Numbered from the stretch's first letter, positions 738 to 16,268 are shown. The stretch: DNA of 64,000 bases from a virus (IMGVR_UViG_3300002091_000022), one strand, 5' to 3'. Notes: generated from the letters alone by a model not told the origin. Program-made: numbers and translations.

Positions 738-769
738 CCTTAAAGCATACGTTTAATTTAGATGAATAC

Positions 770-797: not shown

Positions 798-898
798 TAT
801 GTTAAAGGCTGCAAATATAGGTTTATTTTTGGTTGTTACTTATATCCTACACGATTATTTTGTACATCTTATATCTTTGCAGTCTAAAATTATAAGAC

Positions 899-1174
899 AT
901 GAAAAAAAGATTGATTAAAGCATTGTACTATTTGAATGAAGGTGAGGGCATTAGTTTAGGTTATGATACATTCCTGACTGGTTTATTAGACGGGTCGGAA
1001 AAGATATATGGGTTTGCTAGATTAGATAATCTAATAGTGGTATTGAACGGTAGTAGTAATTATTCAATAGATTATCTAACTGGAAATGATTTAAGTTATA
1101 TCTTTAAGCATTCCCTTATATATGATAATATTGTAGGCAGAATATATGACATAAAAAAAATTGAAGAAATATAA
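899..1174 (+). CDS. hypothetical protein
   Basis: 91-aa ORF with cassette promoter at 859-879. Confidence 0.75.
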   Translation: MKKRLIKALYYLNEGEGISLGYDTFLTGLLDGSEKIYGFARLDNLIVVLNGSSNYSIDYLTGNDLSYIFKHSLIYDNIVGRIYDIKKIEEI

Positions 1175-1230
1175 GATTATATTTGGTGGTATCAAAAATA
1201 GTCCTATATTTGCATTCTAAATTAAAAGTT

Positions 1231-1953
1231 ATGCAAACAGAAAATGTTATCGAAAGTAAAGTAGTTAATCCGTTAAGCAATGATTTTAGCAAAAAGAAAA
1301 GTAAGGCTAAAAAGTTTTTACAGCAAAACAGAATAAAAGAGGAAATTGCTGAAAGTGGTTTATTAAGTGGTATAGTTCCATCGTTGGCGTATGAATGTGA
1401 CCAGGAGGAAATTTTAAAATCATTGAACCACAATTTTAAATTTCTTATGATTGACAACGATGTTGTAACGTATAAAAAAATGGTTAATATCGCCCTTGAA
1501 AAGTTTCCTGACAATCCCCCTTGTTTTCATTTAGGTAATTTGAGTGAGATTATTTTTAATGCTAAAGAAAACGATTTTACCCATTGCTTATTTGATTATT
1601 GTAAGGGTTTTGAAAAACATAGAAATGAAGTAGTACATACGCTACAAAATAAAATAGTTGTGGTTGGTGGGTTAGTTTTCTTTACATTTTGTTTGCGGAA
1701 TCCTAGTCACGAACACACAGCGTTTGTTAACGAAATGACTGGTTATTCAAACCCTAAAATGAAACTGGTTAGTATTAAAACCTATACTGATGTTAGAAAG
1801 GCTAGACTTATCGAGGAAGCGGCAACCTTGCAAGCATATCGTACATTCTTGCTTGGCGAAATAGGTAATGAACGTTGTTGGCGAATTAAAGAAATTGAAA
1901 CATATCGTGACGGTGCGCCTATGGCATTGATAATATTAAAACGTGTTAAATAA
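1231..1953 (+). CDS. putative class I SAM-dependent methyltransferase-like protein
   Basis: Start moved to 1231, 18 nt after TATATTTG. FLMIDND, HLGNLSEII, HCLFDYC and GGLVFFTF follow the motif order of a Rossmann MTase, but the glycine loop is degenerate. Confidence 0.45.
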   Translation: MQTENVIESKVVNPLSNDFSKKKSKAKKFLQQNRIKEEIAESGLLSGIVPSLAYECDQEEILKSLNHNFKFLMIDNDVVTYKKMVNIALEKFPDNPPCFHLGNLSEIIFNAKENDFTHCLFDYCKGFEKHRNEVVHTLQNKIVVVGGLVFFTFCLRNPSHEHTAFVNEMTGYSNPKMKLVSIKTYTDVRKARLIEEAATLQAYRTFLLGEIGNERCWRIKEIETYRDGAPMALIILKRVK

Positions 1954-2014
1954 AATAAATTTGGGGGTATTGAAAAATACCCCTATCTTTGTATCCTAAA
2001 TAAAAATAAACGTT

Positions 2015-2575
2015 ATGCAAAAGTATCAATTAAGTAATGGTAACACTTTACAAGTTATCAATGATAGCAATCCTGAAAGTCCCCGTACTTGGAGTAACTT
2101 AGGTAAAATGGTTTGTTTCCATAGAAGATATTCACTTGGGGATAAACACGATTTTAAGCAAGGTGACTATAATGGTTGGGATGAACTAAAAGCGGCTATC
2201 CTTAAAAAAGAAAATGTTGCCGTTATACAGCCTATGTATATGTATGACCATAGTGGTATAACTGTATCGACTAAGCCGTTTAGCTGTCCTTTTGATAGTG
2301 GACAAATAGGGTTTATCTACATTACCAAAGAAGCTGCTAGAGAAGGCTTTATGGTTAAGAACGTTACGGCTAAGATAAAGGAAAGACTATTGGTTAATCT
2401 AAACGGTGAAGTTGAAACGTATGACCAATATTTAACTGGTGACATTTACGGTTTCAAAGAAGTTGATAGTGAGGGTAATGAAGTGGATAGTTGTTGGGGG
2501 TTTTATGGTGACAATCCAAAAACTAATGGTATGAGTGACCATATAGATAGTGAGGTATTAGATGAGATAAAATAA
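2015..2575 (+). CDS. conserved phage hypothetical protein
   Basis: PESPRTWSNLGKMVCFHRRYSLGD...YDHSG...DSGQIGF...DSCWGFYG, a pattern I recognise from phage/mobile-element hypotheticals. Confidence 0.8.
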   Translation: MQKYQLSNGNTLQVINDSNPESPRTWSNLGKMVCFHRRYSLGDKHDFKQGDYNGWDELKAAILKKENVAVIQPMYMYDHSGITVSTKPFSCPFDSGQIGFIYITKEAAREGFMVKNVTAKIKERLLVNLNGEVETYDQYLTGDIYGFKEVDSEGNEVDSCWGFYGDNPKTNGMSDHIDSEVLDEIK

Positions 2576-2632
2576 AAATAAATTTGGCTATGTGAAAACA
2601 TAGCCTTATTTTTGTAATCTAAATGAAACGAT

Positions 2633-2821
2633 ATGAATCAGTATGATATAACACTTGGAACTGGTAAGAGAACAGTTTTTGCTGATAACCATATTAAAGC
2701 ATTTGAAAGTTTGGGATATGGTAAAGATTATAAGATTACTTCAACTAATAAAAAATCTTGGCAAATAACGTTAAATGGACAAGTGGGGCATAAGAGAATT
2801 TACACTATAAACCAATTATAA
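2633..2821 (+). CDS. hypothetical protein
   Basis: ORF 18 nt after a cassette -7 box. Confidence 0.7.
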   Translation: MNQYDITLGTGKRTVFADNHIKAFESLGYGKDYKITSTNKKSWQITLNGQVGHKRIYTINQL

Positions 2822-2879
2822 AATAAATTTGGTTGGCAAGTAAAATAGTCTTATATTTGCATCACTAAATTAAACGGTT

Positions 2880-3200
2880 ATGGAAAAGTTTGTATTATCA
2901 TCTAAGACAATCATTAATACCTATTGGTGGAATCATGGCAGTAAGACAAAAGACTTTACTGGTACGATTGATGAGTGGTTAACGTTTCATAAGGTTAAGG
3001 TTACTAGGTTAAGACGTAAGAACGTATTACCCCGTTTCAAGTTTGATTTTACTGTTGGTAGGCATACGGTTTCGCTTACAACTGAAAGTAACGATTTTGA
3101 AGATGCAGCCCTTTATATCATAAGAATGTGGATAACCTACTTAGGGGATAAAGCCATGATTGTTACTGATTTAAGAGAATATAAAATAAACTGGAGATAA
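2880..3200 (+). CDS. hypothetical protein
   Basis: ORF with cassette promoter. Confidence 0.75.
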   Translation: MEKFVLSSKTIINTYWWNHGSKTKDFTGTIDEWLTFHKVKVTRLRRKNVLPRFKFDFTVGRHTVSLTTESNDFEDAALYIIRMWITYLGDKAMIVTDLREYKINWR

Positions 3201-3251
3201 ATTTGGTGGTTACCAAAAATACCCTTATCTTTGCAGTCTAAATAAAAAGTT

Positions 3252-3548
3252 ATGATACCGAAATGGGTTTTTGATAGCGTTAATGCTAGGGTAATACTTG
3301 AAGATGATAGTGAGGCTATTTTCTATACCGATACATTAAGTTGTTCTGATAGTGTTATTGAAAGGGTTGTTGAGATACACAACAATAGTAAACAAGAAAG
3401 TCTTGATTTGCTAGATTCTACTGAACAATATTTATTACCTGAAATTAAACAATATTTAATAGATGAAACAAACTGTAATGAGGATGATAAGGATTATCTT
3501 ATAGAAGCTATTTTCAACTATTATCAAGTTAAATGGTTTTGTTTATAA
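3252..3548 (+). CDS. acidic hypothetical protein
   Basis: ORF 18 nt after the -7 box; D/E-rich. Confidence 0.75.
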   Translation: MIPKWVFDSVNARVILEDDSEAIFYTDTLSCSDSVIERVVEIHNNSKQESLDLLDSTEQYLLPEIKQYLIDETNCNEDDKDYLIEAIFNYYQVKWFCL

Positions 3549-3584
3549 AAATACCCTTATCTTTGCATTACTAAATTAAATAAA

Positions 3585-3854
3585 ATGAAAAAAATTAAGA
3601 GTTTATTTGTATCAGCCTTGTTAATGGCTTGGAGAATGATTAAAGCACCGATTATGGGTCGTGTAGCGGATGCTGTATGTGATTACGATTATGAAGTTGG
3701 TGGTACTGTATGTTATCCAACGAATCAGCCATCATTTAACGAATGGTGCGAAATGTTTAACGTGTCAAAAGCGTGTCCGAAAGTAATTGTTATGAGTAAG
3801 GAACAAGTTGCCGACAAGTTAGGTATTAGTTCATCTAATCTAAGAATAATCTAA
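3585..3854 (+). CDS. hypothetical protein
   Basis: ORF with cassette promoter whose -33 box lies in the upstream gene end. Confidence 0.7.
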   Translation: MKKIKSLFVSALLMAWRMIKAPIMGRVADAVCDYDYEVGGTVCYPTNQPSFNEWCEMFNVSKACPKVIVMSKEQVADKLGISSSNLRII

Positions 3855-3926
3855 AAAAAGATTTGTTAGTTTCAAAAAAAGTCTTATCTTTGTGTTCTCA
3901 TATTAATTAACAATAAAAAAAACGTT

Positions 3927-4253
3927 ATGCCTAAAATCGGTAAAAAAAGTCCTGCTGAATTAGCAGCCTTTACAGTAAAGAAAATCAAGTTAGAAGCTGA
4001 AAAAGCCTCTAGGATGGTTCAAGTAGAAGAACTTAGTAAGTACATTAAATTTGGTCATGTTGGTGTCATTGACGGTGAACAAATTGCCGCTCGGTTAACT
4101 ACGTTGAAGCATGAAGAAGCCGCCGCTAAAGCTGACTTGGATGCACTTGAAAAGGAAAGTTGCGAAATGGCAGAAGAAGCATTTGAACACATCTTTGGTA
4201 ATGTGTTTGGTGGTATCTTTGACATTTTTGAAAAAGATGCTGAAAAGAAATAG
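3927..4253 (+). CDS. hypothetical helical protein
   Basis: ORF with cassette promoter, followed by a terminator. Confidence 0.75.
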   Translation: MPKIGKKSPAELAAFTVKKIKLEAEKASRMVQVEELSKYIKFGHVGVIDGEQIAARLTTLKHEEAAAKADLDALEKESCEMAEEAFEHIFGNVFGGIFDIFEKDAEKK

Positions 4254-4270
4254 TAGTATCCCCTGTTAAT

Positions 4271-4298
4271 AAAAGCCTACTGTAATAGGTAGGCTTTT
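4271..4298. terminator. bidirectional intrinsic terminator
   Basis: aaaagcctac-N8-gtaggctttt perfect 10-bp stem. Confidence 0.75.
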
Positions 4299-4404
4299 AT
4301 TCCTAACGATTTAAAGTTTGCCATAAGATGAAACGAATTGTTTATTTATTCATAGCGGCTATTAGTTTAATTGAAGTATTAAGCATGGTCATATACATTG
4401 TAAG

Positions 4405-4524
4405 ATGAAAAGATTAGTACTGGCTCTATTGGTTTGTTTGAGTTTAAGTAGTTGTGTTGTTAGGCATCATAGAATACACCACCACTTTAGACGACCACCT
4501 TGCCATTGTGGACCAATATTTTAA
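4405..4524 (+). CDS. small lipoprotein (39 aa, not in ORF track)
   Basis: MKRLVLALLVCLSLSSC signal/lipobox, then a His/Arg/Cys-rich tail ending HFRRPPCHCGPIF; the stop abuts the next -33 box. Confidence 0.65.
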   Translation: MKRLVLALLVCLSLSSCVVRHHRIHHHFRRPPCHCGPIF

Positions 4525-4577
4525 TTTGGTTGGTAATGAAAATTACCTTATATTTGCATCACAATAAAACATACAAC

Positions 4578-4643
4578 ATGAAAAGTATCGTTACAAAGGT
4601 TATATGCTGGGTTACTAGCTTACCTTTCACAATTTATTTTTAG
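4578..4643 (+). CDS. possible 21-aa peptide
   Basis: MKSIVTKVICWVTSLPFTIYF, directly downstream of cassette promoter 4525-4556. Confidence 0.35.
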   Translation: MKSIVTKVICWVTSLPFTIYF

Positions 4644-4754
4644 TTAAAATACTCCGTTCCTAACAAAGATGTTATTGAAGTTAAACTAGGTAATTGATTT
4701 GTCATTTGGTTGTATAGGGAAACAGTTATGCTAATGTTGCAACGTTTCTAGTGT

Positions 4755-4790
4755 GACTGTTAATCGTGGTTCGATTCCACAGCGGAGTGC
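4755..4790 (+). pseudogene. tRNA-like remnant (Asn-type anticodon loop plus T-arm)
   Basis: ga-CTGTTAA-tc at 4755-4765 immediately followed by gtgg-TTCGATT-ccac at 4766-4780; no D-arm or acceptor stem found. Confidence 0.3.
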
Positions 4791-4914
4791 AATTAATTTG
4801 GTCGGGCGTTGGAAGTAAGCAAAGTAATTGGGAACTTCACATAACGTTAATTTAGCTGGCAAATTCCTCACCTCACTGGTGGGGATTTGTTGGTTATAGT
4901 TTAAATAATCTATT

Positions 4915-4998
4915 ATGAATATTTTTATTGGTATCTGTTGTATTGTAGTGGCCGTGTTAATAGTTGGATTTATCTATTATAAATGTCCTACAAATTAA
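4915..4998 (+). CDS. small single-TM peptide (27 aa)
   Basis: MNIFIGICCIVVAVLIVGFIYYKCPTN; the stop abuts the next -33 box. Confidence 0.5.
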   Translation: MNIFIGICCIVVAVLIVGFIYYKCPTN

Positions 4999-5050
4999 AT
5001 TTGGTGGGTAACTAAAATACCCTTATCTTTGCATCATTAAATTAAACGTT

Positions 5051-5386
5051 ATGAGTAAGGTTCGATTAACAAAGCAATCCTTAATACCAATAGTAAATGC
5101 TCAACTAGTAAAAAGTGAATTACCATATACTGTTGTTAATGTTGAAACAACTAAATATACTGCTGACCAATATGAAGCTGGGGCGGCTCGGATTGTGTTT
5201 AAATTGAAACATGATGTTATTGTGGGTGAAGTAATACCTTTCAAAATGTTTTGTATGTATTCAATTAAAGAATTACAAGAACATTGTAATATTGGATATG
5301 AAATTGTAATTAACCGTATTTCGGCTGCAAGTTCCTTTCAAGAGAAATATCGTGTTGACCTTAAAAGAATAAATGAAACTGTATGA
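5051..5386 (+). CDS. hypothetical protein
   Basis: ORF with cassette promoter. Confidence 0.75.
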   Translation: MSKVRLTKQSLIPIVNAQLVKSELPYTVVNVETTKYTADQYEAGAARIVFKLKHDVIVGEVIPFKMFCMYSIKELQEHCNIGYEIVINRISAASSFQEKYRVDLKRINETV

Positions 5387-5973
5387 TAGACTTATTTAAA
5401 GACAAACAATTGGTTTTCTTGGAGAAAGACTATAAATGCCCTGCTAGTCAAGATAGCATTGATTATGGTATTAGGTTTTTAGATACTTGGCTTGAATTGC
5501 CTGACGAACAAGTTAACGCTATGATTGTCCATTATCAGTTTAATCAAATGGATAGAGATGAACTGGCAGCTATCATATTCAACCCTAATAACATTATCGT
5601 AACATATTCTGTATATGTACAAGGTAGCGATGCAATCTTCAAAAAACTAATGGCTACTACTGGTCGAAATGATGTTAAAGGGTTAACCTACATTGATGCT
5701 AGTGGAGCGTTAATAAAGTATCTAAATAGAAATCTTAGGGATGTTGAAAAGGATTTATATGATATTATTTCAGCTATTAATTCAAACAATATAATAACTA
5801 TCAATCACGGTGACATTCGAGGCTATGATGCGGTTAAACCTCAACTATTGAAGATTGACATTAAAGGTGCTTATCAAGATTGTGTGAGTTTAATTGAACT
5901 AAAAGAAGATAACTTTATACCGATTGATAAGAACTTATTTAATATAGGCAAAGAAAGGGTAAGAAATGTATAA
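5383..5973 (+). CDS. hypothetical protein
   Basis: ATGA overlap with the upstream gene (translational coupling). Confidence 0.75.
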   Translation: MIDLFKDKQLVFLEKDYKCPASQDSIDYGIRFLDTWLELPDEQVNAMIVHYQFNQMDRDELAAIIFNPNNIIVTYSVYVQGSDAIFKKLMATTGRNDVKGLTYIDASGALIKYLNRNLRDVEKDLYDIISAINSNNIITINHGDIRGYDAVKPQLLKIDIKGAYQDCVSLIELKEDNFIPIDKNLFNIGKERVRNV

Positions 5974-6027
5974 ATAAATTTGGTAGTATCAAAAATAGTC
6001 TTATCTTTGTAGCCTAAATTAAATGTT

Positions 6028-6786
6028 ATGAAATTTGTTAAGTTACAATTAAACCATTTTACTGTTGAACCTAAAGATAAAGTTCAATGGCGTTTATGCC
6101 TTGAAACAAGCGAGGATATTAGAAATTACAGTAAGTTAGATGCTGAAAAGATTTTTACCGCTTATCTACATAGTGATAATGAAAAGCACCCTCCCGAAGG
6201 TAGGCTATCTGCCATAATGCGATTATTGGATAGTACAAGACGTTGCCTTAAAGAAGGTGAAGTAATGTACCCTATGATTGAAATTGCAAACATTTGTGAT
6301 AGCAAGGCTATTGGTATGGAAAAAATACTTAAACATAGTCCTGTATTGGTTAATATGGTTGGTGGTTATTGTGATTATAACGGTTTTGTTAAGCAATGGA
6401 ATTGTGACATACTTGAAGAAATTGTAACCGATGGAATTGGGTTTCCTGTTGAAATAAAAGAAAGTGACGTACTGGTACTGGAGAATAACAGTTCAATAAC
6501 CATTACTGTATCAGATTATCTAAACCATAACAATATTACTGATTATGCGGTTATCAAGTTACTAAAAGAAGTTGATAGTAACTTAGTTAAAAACGCTATC
6601 ATTCGTGCCAACACAATAATAATCGAAAGTCAATTTTTAGACAATATGCAAAATGAAAGATTTTTGATGTTGTTTGATTCATTACCTAAGAAGCGTATTG
6701 TGTTATTCAGTACTAACTTCGCTAAACTCAAAGAATATTCAATGTTTAAAAGTATTTCAGAAAAGCATGAAATAATATTTGGCTAG
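6028..6786 (+). CDS. hypothetical protein
   Basis: 252-aa ORF 18 nt after the -7 box. Confidence 0.8.
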   Translation: MKFVKLQLNHFTVEPKDKVQWRLCLETSEDIRNYSKLDAEKIFTAYLHSDNEKHPPEGRLSAIMRLLDSTRRCLKEGEVMYPMIEIANICDSKAIGMEKILKHSPVLVNMVGGYCDYNGFVKQWNCDILEEIVTDGIGFPVEIKESDVLVLENNSSITITVSDYLNHNNITDYAVIKLLKEVDSNLVKNAIIRANTIIIESQFLDNMQNERFLMLFDSLPKKRIVLFSTNFAKLKEYSMFKSISEKHEIIFG

Positions 6787-6827
6787 TATCAAAAATACCC
6801 TTATCTTTGTATCCTAAATTAAATGTT

Positions 6828-7088
6828 ATGGCAACGAAAGTAAAATTTTTGGTACACAAATGGAACGGCGAACTTTACGCTTTTTTCCCACAATTAAGGT
6901 ATGCGCCTAATGGACATCGTAATGACCTTAAAACTGGTATCGTTCAGACCTCAACATTAACTGGTAGCCAATTAGTTAAAACTGGTATTGGATTTGAGTA
7001 CGTTGAACAAAGTCGAAAGGCAACTAAGAATGAGTATCACGATTTTAAAGCTAAACTTATTCAAAATAATCTAATAGGTTGCGCTTAA
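6828..7088 (+). CDS. hypothetical protein, paralog of the N-terminal half of 7909..8385
   Basis: Start corrected to 6828 (MATKVKFLVHK); shares FLVHK..ELxAxFPQL and EYVxxSRxATxxEYxD. Confidence 0.7.
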   Translation: MATKVKFLVHKWNGELYAFFPQLRYAPNGHRNDLKTGIVQTSTLTGSQLVKTGIGFEYVEQSRKATKNEYHDFKAKLIQNNLIGCA

Positions 7089-7785
7089 CGTCACGGTTTA
7101 TATAACTGCAAAGCGGACGAAGATTGGTGTAATGATTTAATCTAATTACATCATCTTCGTTAATAGCTGAATCAACTGGAATGATATGGTCAACATCCCA
7201 ACCGTAATCGGCTGTACCATTGTATAAACCTTTATTTTCCCATGACATCCACGGTTCAAATTGACCCTCAAGATGTTCTTTGAACTGCTCGAAAGTACAA
7301 CCTAATATTTCAAAAGTCCTTGATTTTTTAGTGTACCCTTTACGTTTAATTGAACTATTAATTAATGTTCGCATATTGCAAGCTAAACCAAACAGCTTAT
7401 CGTTTTTACGTCTTTCTCTCATATAAGTGTTTAGTTTATCTCTGTTAGTATCTCTATAGATTTTAGCTTTAGCTTTAATAACATCTTGATTAGTATCCCT
7501 ATATTCCTTTGTCTTAATTAATATGGTTTCCTTATTATTTATATAATACTTTTTAAGACTTTTACTTGTTGACTCCTTAACCTTATCAGGATTATTTTCT
7601 CTATACTCTTTATGTTTAGTTAATATAGTATCTTTATTAGCTTCATAATGTAAACGGTTTTTTTCATTCATTAACTCTTTATTAGCTTTATAATACTCTT
7701 TCTTTTGAGCAGCAATTTTCTCTTTAGCTTTTAATTTGTAGGCATCGTTACAGGCTTTTTGTTTTACTGGGTCTTTATATGGCAT
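7057..7785 (-). CDS. HNH/EndoVII-like homing endonuclease with N-terminal KxYRxxNxD repeats
   Basis: LGCTFEQFKEHLEGQF..MSWEN..WDVDHIIPV..NHYTNLRPL; ATATTTAT upstream at 7800-7807. Confidence 0.75.
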   Translation of the reverse strand: MPYKDPVKQKACNDAYKLKAKEKIAAQKKEYYKANKELMNEKNRLHYEANKDTILTKHKEYRENNPDKVKESTSKSLKKYYINNKETILIKTKEYRDTNQDVIKAKAKIYRDTNRDKLNTYMRERRKNDKLFGLACNMRTLINSSIKRKGYTKKSRTFEILGCTFEQFKEHLEGQFEPWMSWENKGLYNGTADYGWDVDHIIPVDSAINEDDVIRLNHYTNLRPLCSYINRDVKRNLLDYFE

Positions 7786-7908
7786 AATTTCTCTTTATAA
7801 TAAATATCATAGAAAAGAGTAAAAATTCATAAATCTTTACGATACCCAAAAATAAATTTGTTTGGTATTAAATATAGTCTTATATTTGCAATCTAAATTA
7901 TAAACGTT

Positions 7909-8385
7909 ATGGCAACTAAGGTTAAGTTTCTAGTACATAAGCAAAACAAAGAATTATTTGCTTACTTTCCACAATTGGTATTTGATAGTAAAGGTAATAA
8001 GGCTTGTTATGCACACAACGGGCAACACTCCGCTTGTGCAATCGAGTATGTTAACGAAAGTCGATACGCTACTGAAAGCGAGTATAAAGACCTCAAAAAA
8101 GAACTAGAGGGGCAAGGTTATGAACTAATAGTTTGTGACGGTGTAAAGACAATAGATAAGATAATCTATAAAGTCGATACTAAGAGGGGTGCGCCTATGG
8201 GTCGAATGAATCATGGCTATCCTCAAAGTGGTAAAAAAGTCTATGATTGTAAAGTACCTATGAGTGACGGTGCTTATGATAAAGGCGGTGCTTACTGGGG
8301 GTTAGGTGCTGAATTAAGGGTGCGATACCATAAAGATAAATCGTATATCGAATTTTACCGATTAGGTGACAGTTTTGAAAAATAA
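7909..8385 (+). CDS. two-domain phage hypothetical protein
   Basis: N-half has YAHNGQHS..EY..L..EL..QGY; C-half has GAPMGR..YDKGGAYWG. Confidence 0.8.
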   Translation: MATKVKFLVHKQNKELFAYFPQLVFDSKGNKACYAHNGQHSACAIEYVNESRYATESEYKDLKKELEGQGYELIVCDGVKTIDKIIYKVDTKRGAPMGRMNHGYPQSGKKVYDCKVPMSDGAYDKGGAYWGLGAELRVRYHKDKSYIEFYRLGDSFEK

Positions 8386-8437
8386 ATTTGGGGGTATAGA
8401 AATATACCCCTATATTTGCATAACTAAATTAAACGAT

Positions 8438-8860
8438 ATGGAACTTCTACAACCGTCCGAAAAGTATATCAATTTTATTGAGAACTCCCACCACTATCTA
8501 AATTGTCCTAAGTATGAGCTAAATGCTAATATTAGAACTCAAATAAGGTTTAACTGGAATGATAAAGATGCGGCTAAGTCTGTGGTTAAAGCTGCTTTAA
8601 AGTATTACGATATTAAGTGTAATGATTTAGATAAACTAATATTTGACCACATCCATACTAGTGAAGCTGACTTTATGAAGCTGAATGTTAATGCTTATAT
8701 AGATAAGATGCCTGCACACATTTATAATTTATCTAAACGAATAGACGACTGGTACAAAGCTAATGTATTAAACCCTAAAGATTATCTAGTTGGCTGTCCA
8801 ATGTATCACAAAGCATTGCAATCGCAAGGTTATTCATATCCTCACAAATATATTTTGTAG
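8438..8860 (+). CDS. hypothetical protein
   Basis: Start corrected to the ATG 19 nt after the -7 box. Confidence 0.75.
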   Translation: MELLQPSEKYINFIENSHHYLNCPKYELNANIRTQIRFNWNDKDAAKSVVKAALKYYDIKCNDLDKLIFDHIHTSEADFMKLNVNAYIDKMPAHIYNLSKRIDDWYKANVLNPKDYLVGCPMYHKALQSQGYSYPHKYIL

Positions 8861-8902
8861 TTTGGTAAAATAGTCTTATATTTGTATCCTAAATTAAATG
8901 TT

Positions 8903-9085
8903 ATGGCAACGAATGTTACTGGGATTAAATTATACAAGCGTGGTTCAATTATTGTTATTTGGTATGGGTTGTTAAATTACAAATACATTTATTGGAGTAA
9001 AAGAGATGCCTGTAAGAAGTTCAAAGAAAGATTTGGCTTGAGGGGTAAAGTAGAAACTGTTAATCGTTCCCCGTACTTAAATTAA
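8903..9085 (+). CDS. hypothetical protein
   Basis: Start corrected; basic 60-aa ORF. Confidence 0.7.
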   Translation: MATNVTGIKLYKRGSIIVIWYGLLNYKYIYWSKRDACKKFKERFGLRGKVETVNRSPYLN

Positions 9086-9136
9086 ATTTGGTGGGTATCA
9101 AAAATACCCTTATCTTTACAATCTAAATAAAAAGTT

Positions 9137-9412
9137 ATGAGTACTGTAAGAGTTGGTAAAGCATTTTTAAAGAAAATTGCTGATTTAACCGATGAAAATT
9201 ATCACGGTGAATGTTTACTAGTAATTGCCAAAAAGTTTAAGCTGCAAAAGTATATTGATGGCTTTACAGATGTTATCGAAAAACATAACAAAGCTGGGCA
9301 TTTAACCTATGAATTATCATTGAAACGTAGGGGGTTATCCGATGAAATGTTTAAGGAATTGGTGAAGGAACACGGTCAAGAAATCGTAAACAAAATTACA
9401 TCACAAATGTAA
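9137..9412 (+). CDS. hypothetical protein
   Basis: ORF 18 nt after a TATCTTTA variant box. Confidence 0.75.
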   Translation: MSTVRVGKAFLKKIADLTDENYHGECLLVIAKKFKLQKYIDGFTDVIEKHNKAGHLTYELSLKRRGLSDEMFKELVKEHGQEIVNKITSQM

Positions 9413-9423
9413 AATGTATCATT

Positions 9424-9612
9424 ATGTTAATAGTTTATCTAGCACCAGAGTTTACAGAAAGTGACGACTTCACTTTTGAAGGTGACGACCAACGTAAGGA
9501 ACTAGTACTGAATCATCCTAAGAGTGTTAAGTACACTCCATTAGATTTTCAAGTTGCTTTCAATGAAAGTGAAATTAGTGACTTGGGATATATCTACTTC
9601 ATTAATGATTAA
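9424..9612 (+). CDS. acidic hypothetical protein
   Basis: 62-aa ORF 11 nt after the upstream stop. Confidence 0.65.
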   Translation: MLIVYLAPEFTESDDFTFEGDDQRKELVLNHPKSVKYTPLDFQVAFNESEISDLGYIYFIND

Positions 9613-9623
9613 TCTAATCTATT

Positions 9624-9800
9624 ATGATACAGTTAAGTTCACATCACGAAATGAGAATTGTCTTAAAGAATTATAGGTTGGAACCCCTGCCTGATATACC
9701 TATTAGATTAGATAAACCGAAAGGTGGAACTATACCTTTCCCGACCAAATTAAATAAGGGATATAATTCCCAAAAAAGATTTGGCAGAATGAGAAAATAG
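9624..9800 (+). CDS. possible 58-aa basic protein (not in ORF track)
   Basis: MIQLSSHHEMRIVLKNYRLEPL...FGRMRK; fills the gap and runs into the next promoter. Confidence 0.4.
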   Translation: MIQLSSHHEMRIVLKNYRLEPLPDIPIRLDKPKGGTIPFPTKLNKGYNSQKRFGRMRK

Positions 9801-9843
9801 TCTTATATTTGCAGTATCAATTAACAATCTAAAAATTAATGTT

Positions 9844-10056
9844 ATGGCATCAAAGGTAGTTACAAAAACTCGTAGTTATGTGGTTAAGTTAGCCGCTGAA
9901 AAAAAATTCACCACATCTTATAGTGGTAAAGAAAAACGTTTGTTCATTCATGGAGCGGACGAAAAAAGTGTAAAGAACTTTATAGTAGCACTGCAATTTA
10001 AAGGCTTATCCCAAAAGACGCTTGGATTCGATATGCTTGCAGTAGCTAAGAACTAG
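9844..10056 (+). CDS. hypothetical protein
   Basis: ORF with cassette promoter; terminator at 10083-10110. Confidence 0.75.
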   Translation: MASKVVTKTRSYVVKLAAEKKFTTSYSGKEKRLFIHGADEKSVKNFIVALQFKGLSQKTLGFDMLAVAKN

Positions 10057-10082
10057 GTACATAGCGTTTAGATTTAGCCAAT

Positions 10083-10110
10083 AAGCCCCCACCTAACTGG
10101 TGGGGGTTTT
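10083..10110 (+). terminator. intrinsic terminator
   Basis: cccccacc-taact-ggtggggg followed by tttt. Confidence 0.75.
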
Positions 10111-10194
10111 GCGGTAAATAGATTATCTAAAATATAAAAATAAATTTGGTGGGTAATTAATAAACCCTTATCTTTGTATCCTAAATTAAACGAT

Positions 10195-10518
10195 ATGGAT
10201 AAGTTAACTAAAGAATCAGTACCTAATGAAGTGGTATTGAAGTTTAAAGGGTTTAAAGTTACTGGTACTACATTTGTCACTTGTTGGGGTGGTGGTAGCG
10301 GAAACATTGGTTTGAAGCCTTTTAGTTTAGATGAAGTAACGGACGAAACGTTATTAGATAATCTAAACGATAATGGTTTTGGTGTTCAAAGCATTGACGG
10401 TGGTGTATGTGACATTTGGGCGGTGTATGGAGATAACCATACGGTGTTTCAAGAAACGGTTACGGTGGGTCGTGTTCCTGATGACTGGGAAGAAATACAC
10501 GAAGCTAACGACATTTAA
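10195..10518 (+). CDS. phage hypothetical protein
   Basis: Start corrected; CWGGGSGNIG and NDNGFGVQSIDG motifs. Confidence 0.78.
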   Translation: MDKLTKESVPNEVVLKFKGFKVTGTTFVTCWGGGSGNIGLKPFSLDEVTDETLLDNLNDNGFGVQSIDGGVCDIWAVYGDNHTVFQETVTVGRVPDDWEEIHEANDI

Positions 10519-10626
10519 TTTTGGTTTTGGTTCTATATAACGGGGATGGGTATCTACTCGACCCCTTTTTTTTTTATTTGGTGGTTTGAAAAAATAGTCT
10601 TATATTTGTATCCTAAATAATAAATT

Positions 10627-10869
10627 ATGTACAATTACGAAGGTAAATTACCTAATAGCCCTAAACAACCATTCACGGTAAGGGTTAAATATACATTTGA
10701 TGTTGAGTATAAGATTAATGCTACATCTAAAACAGAAGCAAGAGAATTGATTAATACTCAATGTGGTTTAACCTTGGGTGGCAATATTCATAGCACATTG
10801 GCAGATGAAGACATTGACTGGGAAGCTGGTACGCATCCCGAAACAAAAATCGTATCAATTAAAGATTAA
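10627..10869 (+). CDS. hypothetical protein
   Basis: ORF 18 nt after the -7 box. Confidence 0.75.
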   Translation: MYNYEGKLPNSPKQPFTVRVKYTFDVEYKINATSKTEARELINTQCGLTLGGNIHSTLADEDIDWEAGTHPETKIVSIKD

Positions 10870-10904
10870 TTTGGTGGTATCAAAATAAACCCTTATATTT
10901 GTGT

Positions 10905-11000
10905 TCCAATTGGTTACGAAGGATAAACTTAATGGTAGCCTCACAAGGTTCGAGAGTGGGTAACAGGTGGCGTTACTCATCCATTAAGTTTACTTTCATT
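10905..11000 (+). ncRNA. candidate structured RNA (three-way junction) with its own cassette promoter
   Basis: 12-bp perfect stem 10924-10935/10981-10992 enclosing hairpins 10937-10950 and 10956-10980; promoter at 10870-10901. Confidence 0.5.
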
Positions 11001-11013
11001 TAAACTATAAAGT

Positions 11014-11202
11014 ATGAAGAAATATCGTATCTATGTTATTAACGGTACACCAGCGTTCTATAATAGAATAATTGAATGTACAGGAATGGTTGAAAGTACC
11101 AATGGTTATTATCGCTTCTATAAGGATAATGGTAGTGCTGCCAGTAAGACTATTGCCTTATATCCCATTATGCACACGATTGTTGAACTGATTGAGGATT
11201 AG
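11014..11202 (+). CDS. hypothetical protein
   Basis: 62-aa ORF downstream of the structured leader. Confidence 0.7.
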   Translation: MKKYRIYVINGTPAFYNRIIECTGMVESTNGYYRFYKDNGSAASKTIALYPIMHTIVELIED

Positions 11203-11231
11203 ATACACAAAAGTGTACATAACATGACATT

Positions 11232-11519
11232 ATGGCTAGATTGGAGCTTATAGTTAAGATAAACCAATACATTGAAAAGTTTGGCGTTATAACCTATTCC
11301 GATTTACCATCCGATGTTGAACTACAGTTTGAATCAATGGGTAACGGTAAGTACATATCAATGTTCGAGATATTTGAACAGGATAAGGTAACTTGCTTTA
11401 TATATAATACTGAAAATGATGGAGTAGATATTGGTCGTTATACAATGAAGTATAATGATTTACCTAATCCATCATTGAAGCAAATAAGCAAAGCGTTAAA
11501 ACGCTTTACCAGTGCATAA
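11232..11519 (+). CDS. hypothetical protein
   Basis: 95-aa ORF. Confidence 0.7.
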   Translation: MARLELIVKINQYIEKFGVITYSDLPSDVELQFESMGNGKYISMFEIFEQDKVTCFIYNTENDGVDIGRYTMKYNDLPNPSLKQISKALKRFTSA

Positions 11520-11685
11520 GAGCATACGGGTTTTGTCCTAATTCCCTAAGCTTCTTTACCAATTCTTGAAACTTTATTGGTGTAATTTGAAACGTGCAAG
11601 TGTTCTCTGTATTCTCGGTATATTTACGTTTAGGTAACATAGACTGAAAATAAGGAATCTGTGCTTTTGCAATTAATACATACAT
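11506..11685 (-). CDS. 59-aa hypothetical protein on an inverted cassette (not in ORF track)
   Basis: Minus-strand TTTG (11740-11737), TATATTTG (11716-11709) and ctaattaaattaaac leader; MYVLIAKAQIPYFQSMLPKRKY...GQNPYALMHW. Confidence 0.7.
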   Translation of the reverse strand: MYVLIAKAQIPYFQSMLPKRKYTENTENTCTFQITPIKFQELVKKLRELGQNPYALMHW

Positions 11686-11802
11686 AATAGTTTAATTTAA
11701 TTAGGCTGCAAATATAGTGGTATCTTTCCAGTTAAACAAATAAAAAAATAAATTTGTCCAGTATCAAAAATACCCTTATCTTTGTATCCTAAATTAAATG
11801 AT

Positions 11803-12135
11803 ATGAGTGCAGCACTAAACGAAGTAATTAAGAACACGGTACAACGTGATTTCGATGCAAAAGAAACATTGCAAGTATTAACAATTAACAAACCAATTTA
11901 TTGGTCTTGGGGTGTATCTAATAGGTATGCTGATAAGAACTATTTACTCTTAAAGGTTTCGGGTCACCACCATAAGGGTTATGTATTAATTACCCTAAAC
12001 TATAATGATACATACAAGGTTAGTATTGTTAGTTATAGGGGTAAACTACTCCAAACATTTGATGAAGTCTATTTTGACCAATTGACTGAAATAATAGATA
12101 ACCGTATTGAGAAGATAGCTAACTATACTTATTAA
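11803..12135 (+). CDS. phage hypothetical protein
   Basis: Start corrected; WSWG..LLKVSGHHHKGYVLITL..NDTY. Confidence 0.8.
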   Translation: MSAALNEVIKNTVQRDFDAKETLQVLTINKPIYWSWGVSNRYADKNYLLLKVSGHHHKGYVLITLNYNDTYKVSIVSYRGKLLQTFDEVYFDQLTEIIDNRIEKIANYTY

Positions 12136-12210
12136 TAGTTTATCTAATCTGAAAAATAAATTTGGCTATGTGCAAACATAGCCTTATTTTTGCACTCTAA
12201 ATAAAACGGT

Positions 12211-12771
12211 ATGAGTACTAAAGTAAAACATTTCTTATCTAGTGATTTTGTTGATACCTACAAAAATATTAAGAAGGGCGAAGTTGTAGAGTATGAGAAT
12301 AAAAGGTATAGGGTAATTTGGATTGTAATGGAACTAGGCGAAGCAATCATATTCTTACAAAAGATTAAGAAAGACGGTAAGCCATACAACAACCTTTCAC
12401 CCTTTGGCGTTAAGTATAACAAGCTAAAAAATATTGAAGCAGTTAGTTTAATGTTTCCACAGTTTGATTGGACGTATAACAAAGATAATGACGGTTATTT
12501 TGCCACTAAGCAAGTAAACAGGATTGATAAGAGGTTGGCTGATAAAAGTCGTGTATCATATTACACTATTTATATCTTCATTAGTAGCTTATCTGAAAGG
12601 AATGGTACTAGGTATGCAATGTGTTGGCAAAAGATTGAAATTACCCGTTACAGGTGCAGAAATAGCCATGAAGCAGAATTTAACAAGTCATTCGTTTATG
12701 ATGCTAGTTTAGATAAACTATTAGAAAAGTTAAAGGCGGCTACTGATATGAATAAGTTTGTAACTAAGTAA
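12211..12771 (+). CDS. hypothetical protein
   Basis: ORF 18 nt after the -7 box. Confidence 0.78.
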   Translation: MSTKVKHFLSSDFVDTYKNIKKGEVVEYENKRYRVIWIVMELGEAIIFLQKIKKDGKPYNNLSPFGVKYNKLKNIEAVSLMFPQFDWTYNKDNDGYFATKQVNRIDKRLADKSRVSYYTIYIFISSLSERNGTRYAMCWQKIEITRYRCRNSHEAEFNKSFVYDASLDKLLEKLKAATDMNKFVTK

Positions 12772-12828
12772 AAATAAATTTGGCTATGTGAAAAAATAGC
12801 CTTATTTTTGTATCCTAAATTAAATGAT

Positions 12829-13335
12829 ATGAGTAACTACTTAACACCTGAAAAAAAAGCATACTATCAAAATGAGTTTGCTAAAGTACTACAATGTAAA
12901 GATACTGATTGGGATTTAGATAAAGGATTATTAAGTATCCTAACCGAAATTAATAAGAATCCAAACATACAAACAATACTCTCAAAACGTAGTGAGAATT
13001 TAACTAAAAGCAATGATAGTTATTTACATTTCACTTTTACTAAAGAAGTTGAAGAAAAGTTGAAACGCATTTTATGGCGTATGAAAACAACATTTGAAAG
13101 GAAAGGTAATGGTAACGGTCTGGGTGTAAAATACTATGCTGCTGAACATTTTTCCGATATGGAAGTTGACGAAAGTGAGGTTGACCAAAACATTAAAAAC
13201 CTTGATTGTGTTACTAATGTAAAGAATTATATTGATATTGATTCGTTATTTGTACAGTTATTTAGCTTTAATGAAAGGGTGCATGAATCGTTTTGGGAGA
13301 CACTTAAAAAAGAATTAGGTAGTGTCACAAAATAA
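12829..13335 (+). CDS. hypothetical protein
   Basis: Start corrected to the in-frame ATG 18 nt after the -7 box. Confidence 0.78.
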   Translation: MSNYLTPEKKAYYQNEFAKVLQCKDTDWDLDKGLLSILTEINKNPNIQTILSKRSENLTKSNDSYLHFTFTKEVEEKLKRILWRMKTTFERKGNGNGLGVKYYAAEHFSDMEVDESEVDQNIKNLDCVTNVKNYIDIDSLFVQLFSFNERVHESFWETLKKELGSVTK

Positions 13336-13364
13336 CCTTATTTTTGTACTCTAAATAAAACGGT

Positions 13365-13559
13365 ATGAGTAACTATACAACTGAACATAAACATATTAGC
13401 AAAATTGTATCAGGTGACACAATAATGCACAACGGTGAAATGAAAACCGTTACCAATACAAATATCAAACACGATGCCTTTATGGGTACTTCATTATTTG
13501 GTGACAGTTATAATATTGGTTACAAATTGGTTGAGGTTCTTAACTTCAAAACAAAGTAA
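13365..13559 (+). CDS. phage hypothetical protein
   Basis: HISKIVSGDTIMHNGEMKTV..FMGTSLFGDSY; cassette promoter. Confidence 0.75.
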   Translation: MSNYTTEHKHISKIVSGDTIMHNGEMKTVTNTNIKHDAFMGTSLFGDSYNIGYKLVEVLNFKTK

Positions 13560-13616
13560 AAATAAATTTGGTTGGTATCAAATATAACCTTATCTTTACA
13601 CCCTAAATCATATTAT

Positions 13617-13829
13617 ATGTTATTCATTGAATGGTGGAGCGGTTTATCGCTTAATGAGCAAAGAGAATACTCTAAAAAGCATTTAGATTGTTACTACTAT
13701 GCTTGTATATGGGATTACAGCCTAAGTAAGTATGTAAAGGATAGTCTATTCTGTAAAATTATAGAAATAGTTTGGGATAATGAAATAAATTTGGCGGAAC
13801 CAAAAAATAGCCTTATATTTGTACCCTAA
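13617..13829 (+). CDS. hypothetical protein
   Basis: Start corrected; the 3' end reads through the next promoter repeat. Confidence 0.6.
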   Translation: MLFIEWWSGLSLNEQREYSKKHLDCYYYACIWDYSLSKYVKDSLFCKIIEIVWDNEINLAEPKNSLIFVP

Positions 13830-13839
13830 ATTAAAAGTT

Positions 13840-14064
13840 ATGGAAGGACAAAATTATTACGAAGGACAGTTGAACAACATTGAGGTTGGTAAGACTGAAT
13901 TTGCACCAACGTTCAAAATATTTGCAAATGGTAATGGTGCGGACACTAAACACTTATCATTGAATAATGATAGTGCTACTGAACTAGTGAAGTGGTTATC
14001 AAAGAACTTTGATGTAAGAGGGGTTGATGCTTACCCGACACTATTTGCACTTAGTCTAAATTAA
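13840..14064 (+). CDS. hypothetical protein
   Basis: Start corrected. Confidence 0.75.
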   Translation: MEGQNYYEGQLNNIEVGKTEFAPTFKIFANGNGADTKHLSLNNDSATELVKWLSKNFDVRGVDAYPTLFALSLN

Positions 14065-14115
14065 ATTTGGTAGGTAACTAAAATACCCTTATCTTTGTAT
14101 CCTAAATTAAATGAT

Positions 14116-14433
14116 ATGGCAAAGAGTAAACATTACACAGGTTCGGATTTAGGGCAAGACTTTCGTACCTTTTACACTAAGGAAACTAATCGGATTAAGA
14201 AGGTATTAACAGAAATGGGATGTACCAACATTGAGTTCTCTAGGCAGTTCTACTACTTTTATGGATTCTTTACAGCACCTTCGGGGCAAGTGTATTATAT
14301 GAGTTGTAGTGATGTAAGGCATTTTCCTTATGAAAAACTATTGTATCGTACAGCCGCAACTTATAAGGATTACACGGGCGGTTATAACTGTTACGTTAAA
14401 CCTGATGGCATTAAGTTTATCAATTTCAAATAG
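14116..14433 (+). CDS. phage hypothetical protein
   Basis: Start corrected; YYMSCSDVRHF..LLYRTA..KDYTGG. Confidence 0.8.
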   Translation: MAKSKHYTGSDLGQDFRTFYTKETNRIKKVLTEMGCTNIEFSRQFYYFYGFFTAPSGQVYYMSCSDVRHFPYEKLLYRTAATYKDYTGGYNCYVKPDGIKFINFK

Positions 14434-14509
14434 TTTTGGTTTTAGTCTCTCATATAAAAGGGGTTCTATGTCTATAGTGACCCCTATTTTTATAGTTTAG
14501 ATAAACTGT

Positions 14510-14569
14510 AAAATAAATTTGGTGGTATCAAAAATAGTCCTATCTTTGTATCCTAAATTAAATGATATG
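14510..14569 (+). promoter_or_regulatory. Representative cassette element: Bacteroidota primary-sigma promoter (-33 TTTG / -7 TAnnTTTG) plus 18-nt AT-rich spacer to the ATG
   Basis: aaaataaaTTTGgtggtatcaaaaatagtccTATCTTTGtatcctaaattaaatgatATG, near-identical to the copy at ~15747-15806. Matches the established Bacteroidota housekeeping promoter consensus. Confidence 0.9.
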
Positions 14570-14800
14570 TACACAGTACTACTAACAAAAGACAAGCAAG
14601 AAATTAAAATCCTTTCGCAACAATATGTTTGCGGAACGTATGTAACAATCAATGGTATGCAAACAGGCACTACTGAAAAAGAAGACATATACCATAAGAA
14701 GTTAAGAATTAAAGCAATAAAGCTGGGCGATACGATTACAGGCGGCTCGGTGATTGACTTAAAAAGTAAATTCCCTATCAATACATTTGTATCAAACTAA
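14567..14800 (+). CDS. hypothetical protein
   Basis: Start corrected. Confidence 0.72.
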   Translation: MYTVLLTKDKQEIKILSQQYVCGTYVTINGMQTGTTEKEDIYHKKLRIKAIKLGDTITGGSVIDLKSKFPINTFVSN

Positions 14801-14861
14801 TTAAAATAAGATTTGGCTATATGCAAATATAGCCTTATCTTTGTATCCTAAATTAAAGGTT

Positions 14862-15182
14862 ATGACTAATTATGCAATGTTTTTGTGTTCCCCTCTAGGT
14901 GAGAAAACTATTAATAGTTTATCTAAACGTAAAAAGGAGTTAACTATGTCTGACAAAATTGGTAAGATGTTTACCCCTGACATAAGGTTTGAGTTAATGC
15001 CCAAAACAGGTTGTTACAATGTACTTGGATTAAGTGAAGCAGGTAAACTATTCGTGACTAAGATTAGCGGCATTAAGATGGAGAAAGGTAAAATGATTGC
15101 TACTAGTTTAATTGAACCAATATATGAATATGCCTTGAAGCTAGAGTTAACTACTGAAAGGATTGACGGTGACGAAAATTAA
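14862..15182 (+). CDS. hypothetical protein
   Basis: Start corrected. Confidence 0.72.
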   Translation: MTNYAMFLCSPLGEKTINSLSKRKKELTMSDKIGKMFTPDIRFELMPKTGCYNVLGLSEAGKLFVTKISGIKMEKGKMIATSLIEPIYEYALKLELTTERIDGDEN

Positions 15183-15233
15183 ATTTGGTGGCTATCAAAA
15201 ATAGTCCTATCTTTGTATCCTAAATTAAATGTT

Positions 15234-15662
15234 ATGCAAAAAGTATTGGTTCAAGTAATTGTAAATGTAATGGTTAACCTAGACGATAATACGTTAATAG
15301 GTGAAGTAATGGAAAGTATGTCACATAGTTTCAGCTTAAACCAAAGTGATAGTAGTATTGCTAAAACTGAAATTATCCATTATGATGTTATACAAGCTAT
15401 TGATGTTCGTGATGGTGAAGGTTTCGGGATTAAGGTTGAGGTTTCCCCTCGTGACAAGTTCATTAATGAGTTTGAAGCTAGGATATTGGACGGCTTAACA
15501 GGTGATAGGTTATCCACTAAGGTTTCAACTTGTGATTATCCTAATTGGAGTATTGATGAGTACCAATATATGCCAACAGTAGCCGAAAGGTTAAGGGCTA
15601 AAGGGTACACCGTAAGTAGTAAAATTAATCATGGTGTAACTGATTGGTACATTAGTAAGTAA
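15234..15662 (+). CDS. hypothetical protein
   Basis: Start corrected. Confidence 0.75.
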   Translation: MQKVLVQVIVNVMVNLDDNTLIGEVMESMSHSFSLNQSDSSIAKTEIIHYDVIQAIDVRDGEGFGIKVEVSPRDKFINEFEARILDGLTGDRLSTKVSTCDYPNWSIDEYQYMPTVAERLRAKGYTVSSKINHGVTDWYISK

Positions 15663-15697
15663 GATATTTTTTGATTTGGTGAATAAATGTTGATTGG

Positions 15698-15725
15698 GCG
15701 AGGTGTTTCTACACCTTGCTTTTTT
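15698..15725 (+). terminator. intrinsic terminator
   Basis: gcgaggtgt-ttct-acaccttgc followed by T6. Confidence 0.75.
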
Positions 15726-15803
15726 ATTAGATTATCTAATCTATTAAAAATAAATTTGGTAGTATCAAAAATAGTCCTATCTTTGTATCCTAAATTAAAC
15801 GTT

Positions 15804-16268
15804 ATGAGTAAGGCTAAAAAGAAGGAGTTTATTGTAGTAGGTGAAACACCTAGAGTATCAGTAGAAATGGCTGAACAGATTCAGGGGTTACAAAAAAAAC
15901 TTATGACCCCCGAACATGTAGTTTTTGTTGGACAGTTATTTGAAACAGAGTTTGAGAAGGTAATGGTTTATCCCGTATTATTTAGCGTGGAGTTCTTTAA
16001 AGCATTAAAAAAATCTGTGTTGGAACTGATACCTAACACTATTATAGTCGTTGATAATATGTTTGATAGTGATGGGTGGTTATATATCGAACATTGTCCT
16101 AAAGACGATTATCCACGTCAAAAGACAATCTTCTTTAGAAATAAAATTAAATGGGAGGATAAAAATGAGTATGCTAAACGCTTACTACAATACTGCATTG
16201 ATAATCAGTTTAACATTGTACTACAAAAAAATAGAAGTGTGTTTCAATCGGAATTTGTATTGTATTAG
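15804..16268 (+). CDS. hypothetical protein
   Basis: Start corrected to the ATG 18 nt after the -7 box. Confidence 0.75.
   Translation: MSKAKKKEFIVVGETPRVSVEMAEQIQGLQKKLMTPEHVVFVGQLFETEFEKVMVYPVLFSVEFFKALKKSVLELIPNTIIVVDNMFDSDGWLYIEHCPKDDYPRQKTIFFRNKIKWEDKNEYAKRLLQYCIDNQFNIVLQKNRSVFQSEFVLY

Follow-up and report, generated by a model that had tools for sequence, protein, structure and literature searches.

Spacer hairpins in the promoter array of an uncultured T4-type phage are predicted to act as terminators fused to Bacteroidota-type promoters

We analysed a 64,000-nt stretch of DNA from the virus IMGVR_UViG_3300002091_000022 (the whole stretch is called the window below), whose leftmost 18.4 kb hold a row of small same-strand genes separated by stereotyped cassettes with putative promoters. 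In about one in five of these cassettes, a stable hairpin lies inside the promoter, between the -33 box and the -7 box. The hairpins exceed chance expectation, are conserved in a syntenic relative and recur in other phages. We predict that they represent the terminator half of composite promoter-terminator (or attenuator) cassettes, a reading to which we assign a probability of about 0.6.

The cassettes all follow the same order. An A-rich stretch begins just past the stop codon of the preceding gene and is followed by the -33 box TTTG, a spacer of 19–20 nt, the -7 box TAnnTTTG, an A-rich leader and the ATG. The leader is fixed, with 18–19 nt between the -7 box and the start codon, and no Shine-Dalgarno motif was found in the cassettes, the start codon being preceded by this A-rich leader instead. 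The lack of a Shine-Dalgarno motif agrees with translation initiation in Bacteroidota. By its sequence, the layout is that of the Bacteroidota -33/-7 promoter type and not of sigma-70 promoters, and we regard the cassettes as putative promoters of this type, which point to a Bacteroidota host for the phage. Both boxes and the 19–21 nt spacing are shared with the promoters of the Bacteroidota housekeeping sigma factor, for which the consensus -33 TTTG / -7 TAnnTTTG has been reported (PMC10309648, PMC5682007). That consensus is silent on the spacer, whereas in the phage cassettes the spacer, too, is conserved and has a structure in some of the copies.

A preliminary description of this DNA had placed five perfect 8-bp stems with 4-nt loops, and one shorter stem of 6 bp, between the -33 and -7 boxes. 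All of these are present, and an additional copy was found (H5), which has the stem of H2 with one G/A mismatch (Table 1). The mismatch leaves 6 bp and an 8-nt loop. The 3′ arm of the hairpins finishes 0–1 nt ahead of the TA of TAnnTTTG, and an upstream stop codon on the same strand is located about 10–30 nt before each of the six. The first base of the loop is G in all six hairpins, in contrast to C in the spacer consensus. One of four public DNA runs carries a variant at 1962–1972, within H1, with which a 6-bp stem is still formed.

Table 1. Positions of the cassette array, its hairpin-bearing promoters, weaker stems and stand-alone terminators in the window
Feature	Position	Strand	Description
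Array of about 32 stereotyped cassettes	342–18400	+	A-rich stretch, -33 TTTG, 19–20 nt spacer, -7 TAnnTTTG, 18–19 nt leader, ATG of a small gene without a Pfam family
Cassette promoter H1 (putative)	1960–1991	+	Hairpin 1964–1983, GGGGTATT / GAAA / AATACCCC; extendable to 1962–1985
Cassette promoter H2 (putative)	2583–2614	+	Hairpin 2586–2605, GGCTATGT / GAAA / ACATAGCC; -7 box TATTTTTG; z -6.5
Cassette promoter H3 (putative)	8387–8418	+	Hairpin 8391–8410, GGGGTATA / GAAA / TATACCCC
Cassette promoter H4 (putative)	12161–12192	+	Hairpin 12164–12183, GGCTATGT / GCAA / ACATAGCC; -7 box TATTTTTG
Cassette promoter H5 (putative)	12779–12810	+	Hairpin 12782–12801, arms of H2 with one G/A mismatch; -7 box TATTTTTG
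Cassette promoter H6 (putative)	14812–14843	+	Hairpin 14815–14834, GGCTATAT / GCAA / ATATAGCC
Weaker 6-bp stem, GAAA loop	4532–4547	+	In the spacer of cassette 4525–4556; z -1.8; probably incidental
Weaker 6-bp stem, GGGTAT / CAAAA / ATACCC	9093–9109	+	Degenerate -7 box TATCTTTA; z -1.2
Stand-alone canonical terminator	15696–15721	+	11-bp stem and T-run; 34 nt before the cassette promoter at 15755–15785
Stand-alone canonical terminator within the array	770–793	+	Found by terminator scans
Two-way canonical terminator near the array end	18218–18241	.	Found by terminator scans; before the cassette at 18369

The pairing was compared with chance for the 33 matches to the promoter pattern in positions 1–19200, a spacer fold of -8 kcal/mol or lower being counted as strong. 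Strong folds were found in six of the 33 spacers, against 1.3 expected when the left and right spacer halves were re-dealt among the copies, a procedure that retains the column composition (p ~0.0005), and against 0.04 expected when each spacer was shuffled. Weak stems (-3 kcal/mol or lower) were not enriched (13 versus 10.4 expected, p 0.18). In a 56-nt RNA context, the six hairpins had folding energies of -11 to -17.6 kcal/mol with z-scores of -3.5 to -6.5 (H1: -17.6 kcal/mol, z -3.9), and none of 200 shuffles was as stable; among the controls, two ordinary cassettes gave z-scores of 0 and -2.0 and two weak stems -1.2 and -1.8. A stable stem is present in six cassettes, or in up to nine if stems of 5–6 bp are counted, and some 23–26 others have none. 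Because strong folds exceed chance and weak stems are not enriched, the hairpin is a discrete feature of about one in five cassettes and not of the whole promoter class, whose consensus spacer is unfolded. The weak stems at 9093, 4532, 5006 and 15187 were considered as further members and treated as incidental, as they are not enriched over composition.

The stems had also been described as varying by compensatory change under a retained GNRA loop. In the window they fall into two families, GGGGTAT- and GGCTAT-, within which two-sided changes occur from T-A to A-T at pair 8 and from G-C to A-T at pair 7. When 12 hairpins from the window and from four other contigs are aligned, 95.8% of the cells pair, compared with 59% after shuffling and at most 53% with slid partners, and both sides have changed at six of the eight stem pairs. 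The 12 rows were picked for folding, and these counts describe the pairing without testing it; the unbiased tests are the folds of the re-dealt and shuffled spacers given above and the survey of 433 viral sites given below. Compensatory change can therefore be seen among the paralogous copies and, in these fold-selected rows, across phages. Against a syntenic relative, however, the stems are invariant. The GNRA loop is kept in this phage but not in some relatives, where the loops are TAA, ACA, TTAA or AAAA.

One metagenome scan yielded two relatives, the mosaic contig L207 (~96% identical) and the syntenic contig L208 (81–89% identical). The record nearest to the window, G001, is a fragment in which the early array is missing. 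In L208, H2, H3, H4, H5 and H6 are all found at the corresponding gene junctions. H3, H4 and H6 are identical in their L208 orthologs, and H4 is also identical in L207. Where both flanks are orthologous, the hairpin spacers show 0 differences in 63 positions between the window and L208, while the ordinary spacers show 27 in 250 (Fisher p 0.002), L208 being the sole syntenic relative behind this comparison. H2 and H5, which are orthologous on one flank, differ in L208 by two changes only, one at the N of the loop (GAAA in the window, GCAA in L208) and one at a stem position; the stem of H5, mismatched in the window, is a perfect 8 bp in L208. Of the weak stems, three (4532, 5006 and 15187) lack conservation in L208, and the one at 9093 has no counterpart there. 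Because of the 0/63 versus 27/250 spacer differences, and with the weak stems not retained, the strong hairpins are more tightly constrained than the promoter's spacer itself.

Scanning viral contigs for the promoter pattern revealed that cassette arrays are common in phages of this kind and that most of them have no hairpins. Hairpins were nevertheless found in several. One contig (G002) has four with quite different stems and non-GNRA loops, L072 has one with the stem GGGATATA and a GAAA loop, L103 has two with the stem GGTGGATT and a GAAA or GAGA loop, and in L131 there is a single hairpin, whose loop is AAAA. Strong folds were present at 20 of 500 distinct viral promoter-like sites, and a survey of 433 viral sites gave nine strong folds and none after shuffling. 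A -7 box with T at its free positions (TATTTTTG) occurs in 9 of the 20 hairpin promoters of the viral set and in 31 of the 480 others.

Hairpins in the same position were also found in contigs of bacterial genomes. The generic pattern gave 124 matches, 16 with a hairpin, and about 10 of the stems were perfect over 8 bp, against ~0.03 expected. Two contigs from a Bacteroidales bin, L217 and L228, carry an analogous cassette array with six 8-bp spacer hairpins, which have GAAA loops and stems that all differ. Their array (in L217 on the reverse strand, 1526–6537) comprises about 20 cassettes that are 150–600 bp apart, and both contigs probably represent phage DNA that was placed in the bin of a bacterial genome. 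In Chitinophagia, a hairpin of 7 bp lies between the -33 and -7 boxes in the promoter of a chromosomal tRNA-Val (TAC) gene (L237 766–882, L306 7931–8000); it directly follows the upstream ORF and differs between two species by a compensatory change from A-T to T-A. Further genomes of the Chitinophagia type (Sediminibacterium, Chitinophaga) have a near-identical spacer with a single mismatch, which may likewise precede a tRNA gene.

The hairpins resemble intrinsic terminators of the two-way type with an A-tract and a U-tract, which likewise consist of a stable hairpin with a U-rich stretch directly after it and an A-rich stretch before it. They have 8–10 pairs, 3–4 of them G-C, with 5–7 T within the following 8–9 nt, and in the RNA context the upstream A-run pairs with the downstream U-run and lengthens the stem. 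A terminator scan of positions 1–20000 returned 33 sites, compared with 8.2 in shuffles, and five of the six hairpins pass; four of the six also pass a stricter scan that finds the stand-alone terminators of the phage. Their energies (-9.5 to -13.9 kcal/mol) are inside the range of these stand-alone terminators (-8.6 to -19.7 kcal/mol). Canonical stand-alone terminators at 41683, 57017 and 59313 show the same layout of A-run, stem and T-run. The stretch 15696–15785, in which a stand-alone terminator precedes a cassette promoter, is apparently the unfused form of such a terminator-then-promoter junction. We favour the composite promoter-terminator reading because the hairpin is combined with a U-rich stretch and a pairing A-run, because the terminator scans pick it up, and because the unfused junction exists in the same array. 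The proposal that a fused terminator-promoter insulates each cassette is thus the best-supported one, given the anatomy, the conservation and a published precedent (PMC2839356); termination at the hairpins, and its efficiency, we infer from these sequence features.

In the proposed mechanism, host RNA polymerase with the housekeeping sigma factor would read the cassette promoter. The start site would be a few bases past the -7 box, which would leave the spacer outside the cassette's own transcript, so that the spacer would be transcribed solely by polymerases coming from the upstream gene. In six cassettes, the RNA made by these polymerases would contain a hairpin of 8–10 bp capped by a GNRA tetraloop and then the U-rich copy of the -7 box, with an A-rich stretch ahead of the hairpin able to pair with this U-rich copy. 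The same 32 bp of DNA would thereby end the upstream message and launch the next one, and the hairpins would break up the row of about 32 promoters so that its transcription units become shorter.

Several observations weigh against this interpretation. Unlike the U-run of an intrinsic terminator, that of the phage hairpins is the -7 promoter box, with A, C or G interrupting it (UUAUUUUUG or UAUCUUUG), and at 8–10 bp the stems are shorter than the 10–15 bp of the phage's stand-alone terminators. Because of the interrupted U-run and the shorter stems, termination may be partial. The loop type is no proof of a role at the RNA level, because GNRA-type loops stabilise DNA hairpins too and because the A-rich spacer consensus favours GAAA. 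The hairpin is found in only about one-fifth of the cassettes, a choice of junctions for which the interpretation does not account; the hairpin-less relatives L062, L081, L105 and L049 do without it. The enrichment of TATTTTTG seen in the viral set was absent from the bacterial-genome sample (4/13 versus 20/87), and the independent viral lineages behind it are few. Finally, a test of strand-specific folding, in which G-U should prevail over A-C mismatches, gave no signal (2 versus 4, with 12 other).

The closest published parallel is provided by the promoter-early stem-loop (PeSL) cassettes of the T4-type phages RB49/phi1, PST and nt-1 (Arbiol et al. 2010, PMC2839356; Comeau et al. 2014, PMC4122927). 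PeSLs are composite cassettes with an early promoter plus a stem-loop that flank ORFans in hyperplastic regions, and their stem-loops lie most often between -35 and -10 (PMC2839356). One PeSL stem-loop brought lacZ expression down to an extent similar to that of a strong terminator (PMC2839356), and recombination between PeSLs shuffles genes (PMC2839356; PMC4122927). In the phage and virus literature that we searched, the term PeSL was used only for T4-type phages, a cyanophage and haloarchaeal viruses. The window shares with these systems a unit of ~70–100 bp, repeated between small genes without known function that occupy a variable early region, an AT-rich stretch that comes after the stop codon upstream and is followed by what is, by sequence, a host-type promoter, and a stem-loop that mostly lies between the promoter boxes or overlaps the second one, with stems that differ among copies and phages. 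Related genomes differ by recombination between units in both cases, and the capsid protein is of the T4 type. In contrast to PeSLs, the promoter is of the Bacteroidota kind (-33 TTTG, -7 TAnnTTTG) and not a sigma-70 promoter with -35 and -10 boxes, a fixed A-rich leader takes the place of the Shine-Dalgarno motif, a stable stem is present in only about one-fifth of the cassettes, and GNRA loops are found in place of poly-G/poly-C stems. For the PeSLs of T4-type phages, terminator activity and mini-circles have been described, whereas the cassettes of this phage are known from their sequence. With these differences, the phage cassettes appear to be a Bacteroidota-style version of the published PeSL design.

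The resemblance extends to the exchange of genes. Contigs of related strains from four DNA runs join different cassettes at the promoter or leader (1226 to 14510, 2863 to 5975, 7897 to 4996, and others). L207 and L208 are both mosaics of the window array, and the genes after H2 and H5 are replaced in L208. Such mosaic joints at cassettes look like PeSL-like modular shuffling. This raises the alternative that the hairpin serves mainly in the upstream RNA, stabilising the 3′ end of a long early transcript or marking where it is processed, or as a preferred crossover for cassette shuffling, and not in termination. The joints fall exactly at the promoter or leader, and one PeSL crossover was mapped within the loop of a stem-loop (PMC2839356), which agrees with a recombination role. 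However, joints are found at hairpin-less cassettes too, and therefore the 60–70 bp of sequence shared by the cassettes would be enough for homologous exchange. As for the upstream RNA, a hairpin could be both a stability cap and a terminator, and sequence cannot separate the two. The RNA and crossover roles agree with the data and could accompany termination. We consider it unlikely that the principal role of the hairpin is one of these.

An inverted repeat inside a promoter might instead act at the DNA level, as a hairpin that is extruded from supercoiled or transiently single-stranded promoter DNA and is either read by a phage or host factor, as the virion RNA polymerase does in phage N4, or tunes promoter strength or timing. 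As single-stranded DNA, the hairpins are stable for their size on either strand (-6.4 to -7.8 kcal/mol, z -2.7 to -5.8), and the stabilising effect of GAAA-type loops on DNA hairpins counts in favour of such a role. The hairpin spacers also deviate from the spacer consensus, and the six promoters could be regulated differently. Nevertheless, the hairpin copies share their host-type boxes, spacing, leader and ATG with about 26 hairpin-less copies, and arms of 8 bp are short for spontaneous cruciform extrusion. The window has no RNA polymerase gene, its largest ORF encoding an 841-aa ATPase resembling ATP-dependent proteases, and the capsid is T4-type and not N4-like. Freely varying stems make a sequence-specific dimeric binder unlikely, and we rejected a dimeric binding site of this sort since the arms vary freely yet stay complementary. 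Altogether, a role at the DNA level seems quite improbable to us. A specific comparison with N4 had been offered in the preliminary description. N4 early promoters have a stem of 5–7 bp and a loop of 3 nt that contains conserved bases, are used by a giant phage polymerase and have no host-type boxes. The phage cassettes are similar in that a small hairpin lies in a phage early promoter region. They differ in that the host-type boxes are intact, the hairpin is not obligatory in the class (about four-fifths of the otherwise identical cassettes have none), and no giant virion RNA polymerase or other polymerase family was matched in the 64-kb window, beyond which the genome may continue; an N4-like hairpin promoter is thus unsupported.

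A neutral origin was also considered, in which a quasi-palindromic spacer consensus (GGTAT...ATACC, GG...CC) is occasionally perfected by template switching or gene conversion. The consensus spacer is indeed partly dyad-symmetric, and the weak stems behave as this idea would have it, with a frequency that matches composition (13 vs 10.4) and no conservation in L208. One stem is common to H2, H4 and H5 despite unrelated flanking genes, which indicates copying between cassettes. The strong hairpins fit less well. Their spacers are less diverged than ordinary ones in the comparison of the window with L208, the loop starts with G and not with the consensus C in all six, and the bacterial-genome scan gave far more perfect 8-bp stems than the ~0.03 expected. 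Moreover, distant phages have unrelated stems at this position, as does a chromosomal tRNA promoter, in which a compensatory change has occurred. We therefore find it very doubtful that the hairpins are a neutral by-product.

Turning to the phage itself, the window is AT-rich and phage-like (~32% G+C) and contains genes for a large terminase, a portal protein and a major capsid protein, the last with a Pfam match to Gp23 (2.5e-71). Further genes encode an RNA ligase, a polynucleotide kinase-phosphatase, a thymidylate synthase and the ATPase mentioned above. A tblastn search with the capsid protein matched 2588 phage records, with Escherichia, Synechococcus, Klebsiella and Salmonella phages foremost; the closest cultured phages by this protein are a Microcystis phage and Flavobacterium phage immuto, with 38–42% identity. 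The public DNA runs containing the phage sequence are freshwater and lake metagenomes. Because of the Gp23-type capsid, these capsid matches and the lake DNA runs, the phage is an uncultured member of the T4 superfamily, and a distant one, its capsid identity reaching 42% at most. Megablast of positions 1–20000 and 40000–60000 against cultured phages gave no match, and a search of cultured phages with a cassette query in distant mode returned a chance-level match only. An Rfam search of 1–20000 found no family, and no tRNA was found in the window. Phage immuto (NC_055915.1) is the nearest cultured relative by capsid that infects Bacteroidota. It has three TTTG-N18-21-TAnnTTTG sites, compared with six in the reversed control, and evidently uses other promoters. 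It was considered as a laboratory stand-in and rejected, as the promoter pattern is nearly absent.

The genes of the array are small ORFs in a variable early region, and a Pfam search with 15 of them matched no family. The gene between H1 and H2 (2015–2575) encodes a protein of 186 aa without a Pfam family, which has 49 relatives (35–58% identity) among highly varied viral contigs, some of them from jumbo phages, and seems to be a widespread phage early protein without an assigned function. No orthologous junctions were obtained around this gene, the closest of the 49 relatives having 58% identity. The 186-aa genes before H2 and H5 are not paralogs. A gene on the opposite strand sits within the array (7057–7785, 242 aa, no Pfam match); a part of it of ~230 nt (7084–7310) has four copies in L207 (69–78% identity) and is also found in L072, L093 and L131, and the gene could be mobile or multi-copy. 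At the end of the early array, DUF932 and PcfJ-like proteins are encoded (17268–18197, 20014–21264), families that are typical of conjugative elements and plasmids.

Beyond phages, one may speculate that the spacer hairpin, with its conserved structure and free sequence, is a general Bacteroidota device that couples termination to the next promoter, which we think improbable at present. The hairpin does recur in phage lineages that are unrelated, in Bacteroidales contigs and at the tRNA-Val promoter of Chitinophagia. A polymerase ending at the hairpin would then be released on the overlapped promoter, or would pass supercoiling or the sigma factor to it. If this were true, the level of incoming transcription would set the firing of the next promoter.

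The proposed reading does not overturn current understanding. It would supply a rule for annotation, namely that a hairpin within the -33/-7 spacer marks a transcript boundary. The 32-bp units are candidates for compact insulator parts in the engineering of Bacteroidota, for which characterised terminators and promoters are few. Furthermore, the reading would extend the PeSL design, in which a single short unit ends one gene, begins the next and doubles as a joint for recombination, from the phages of Proteobacteria and cyanobacteria to those of Bacteroidota. Because promoters and translation signals are built differently in Bacteroidota, this would suggest that the design is either convergent or very old, as a way of packing many independent early genes.

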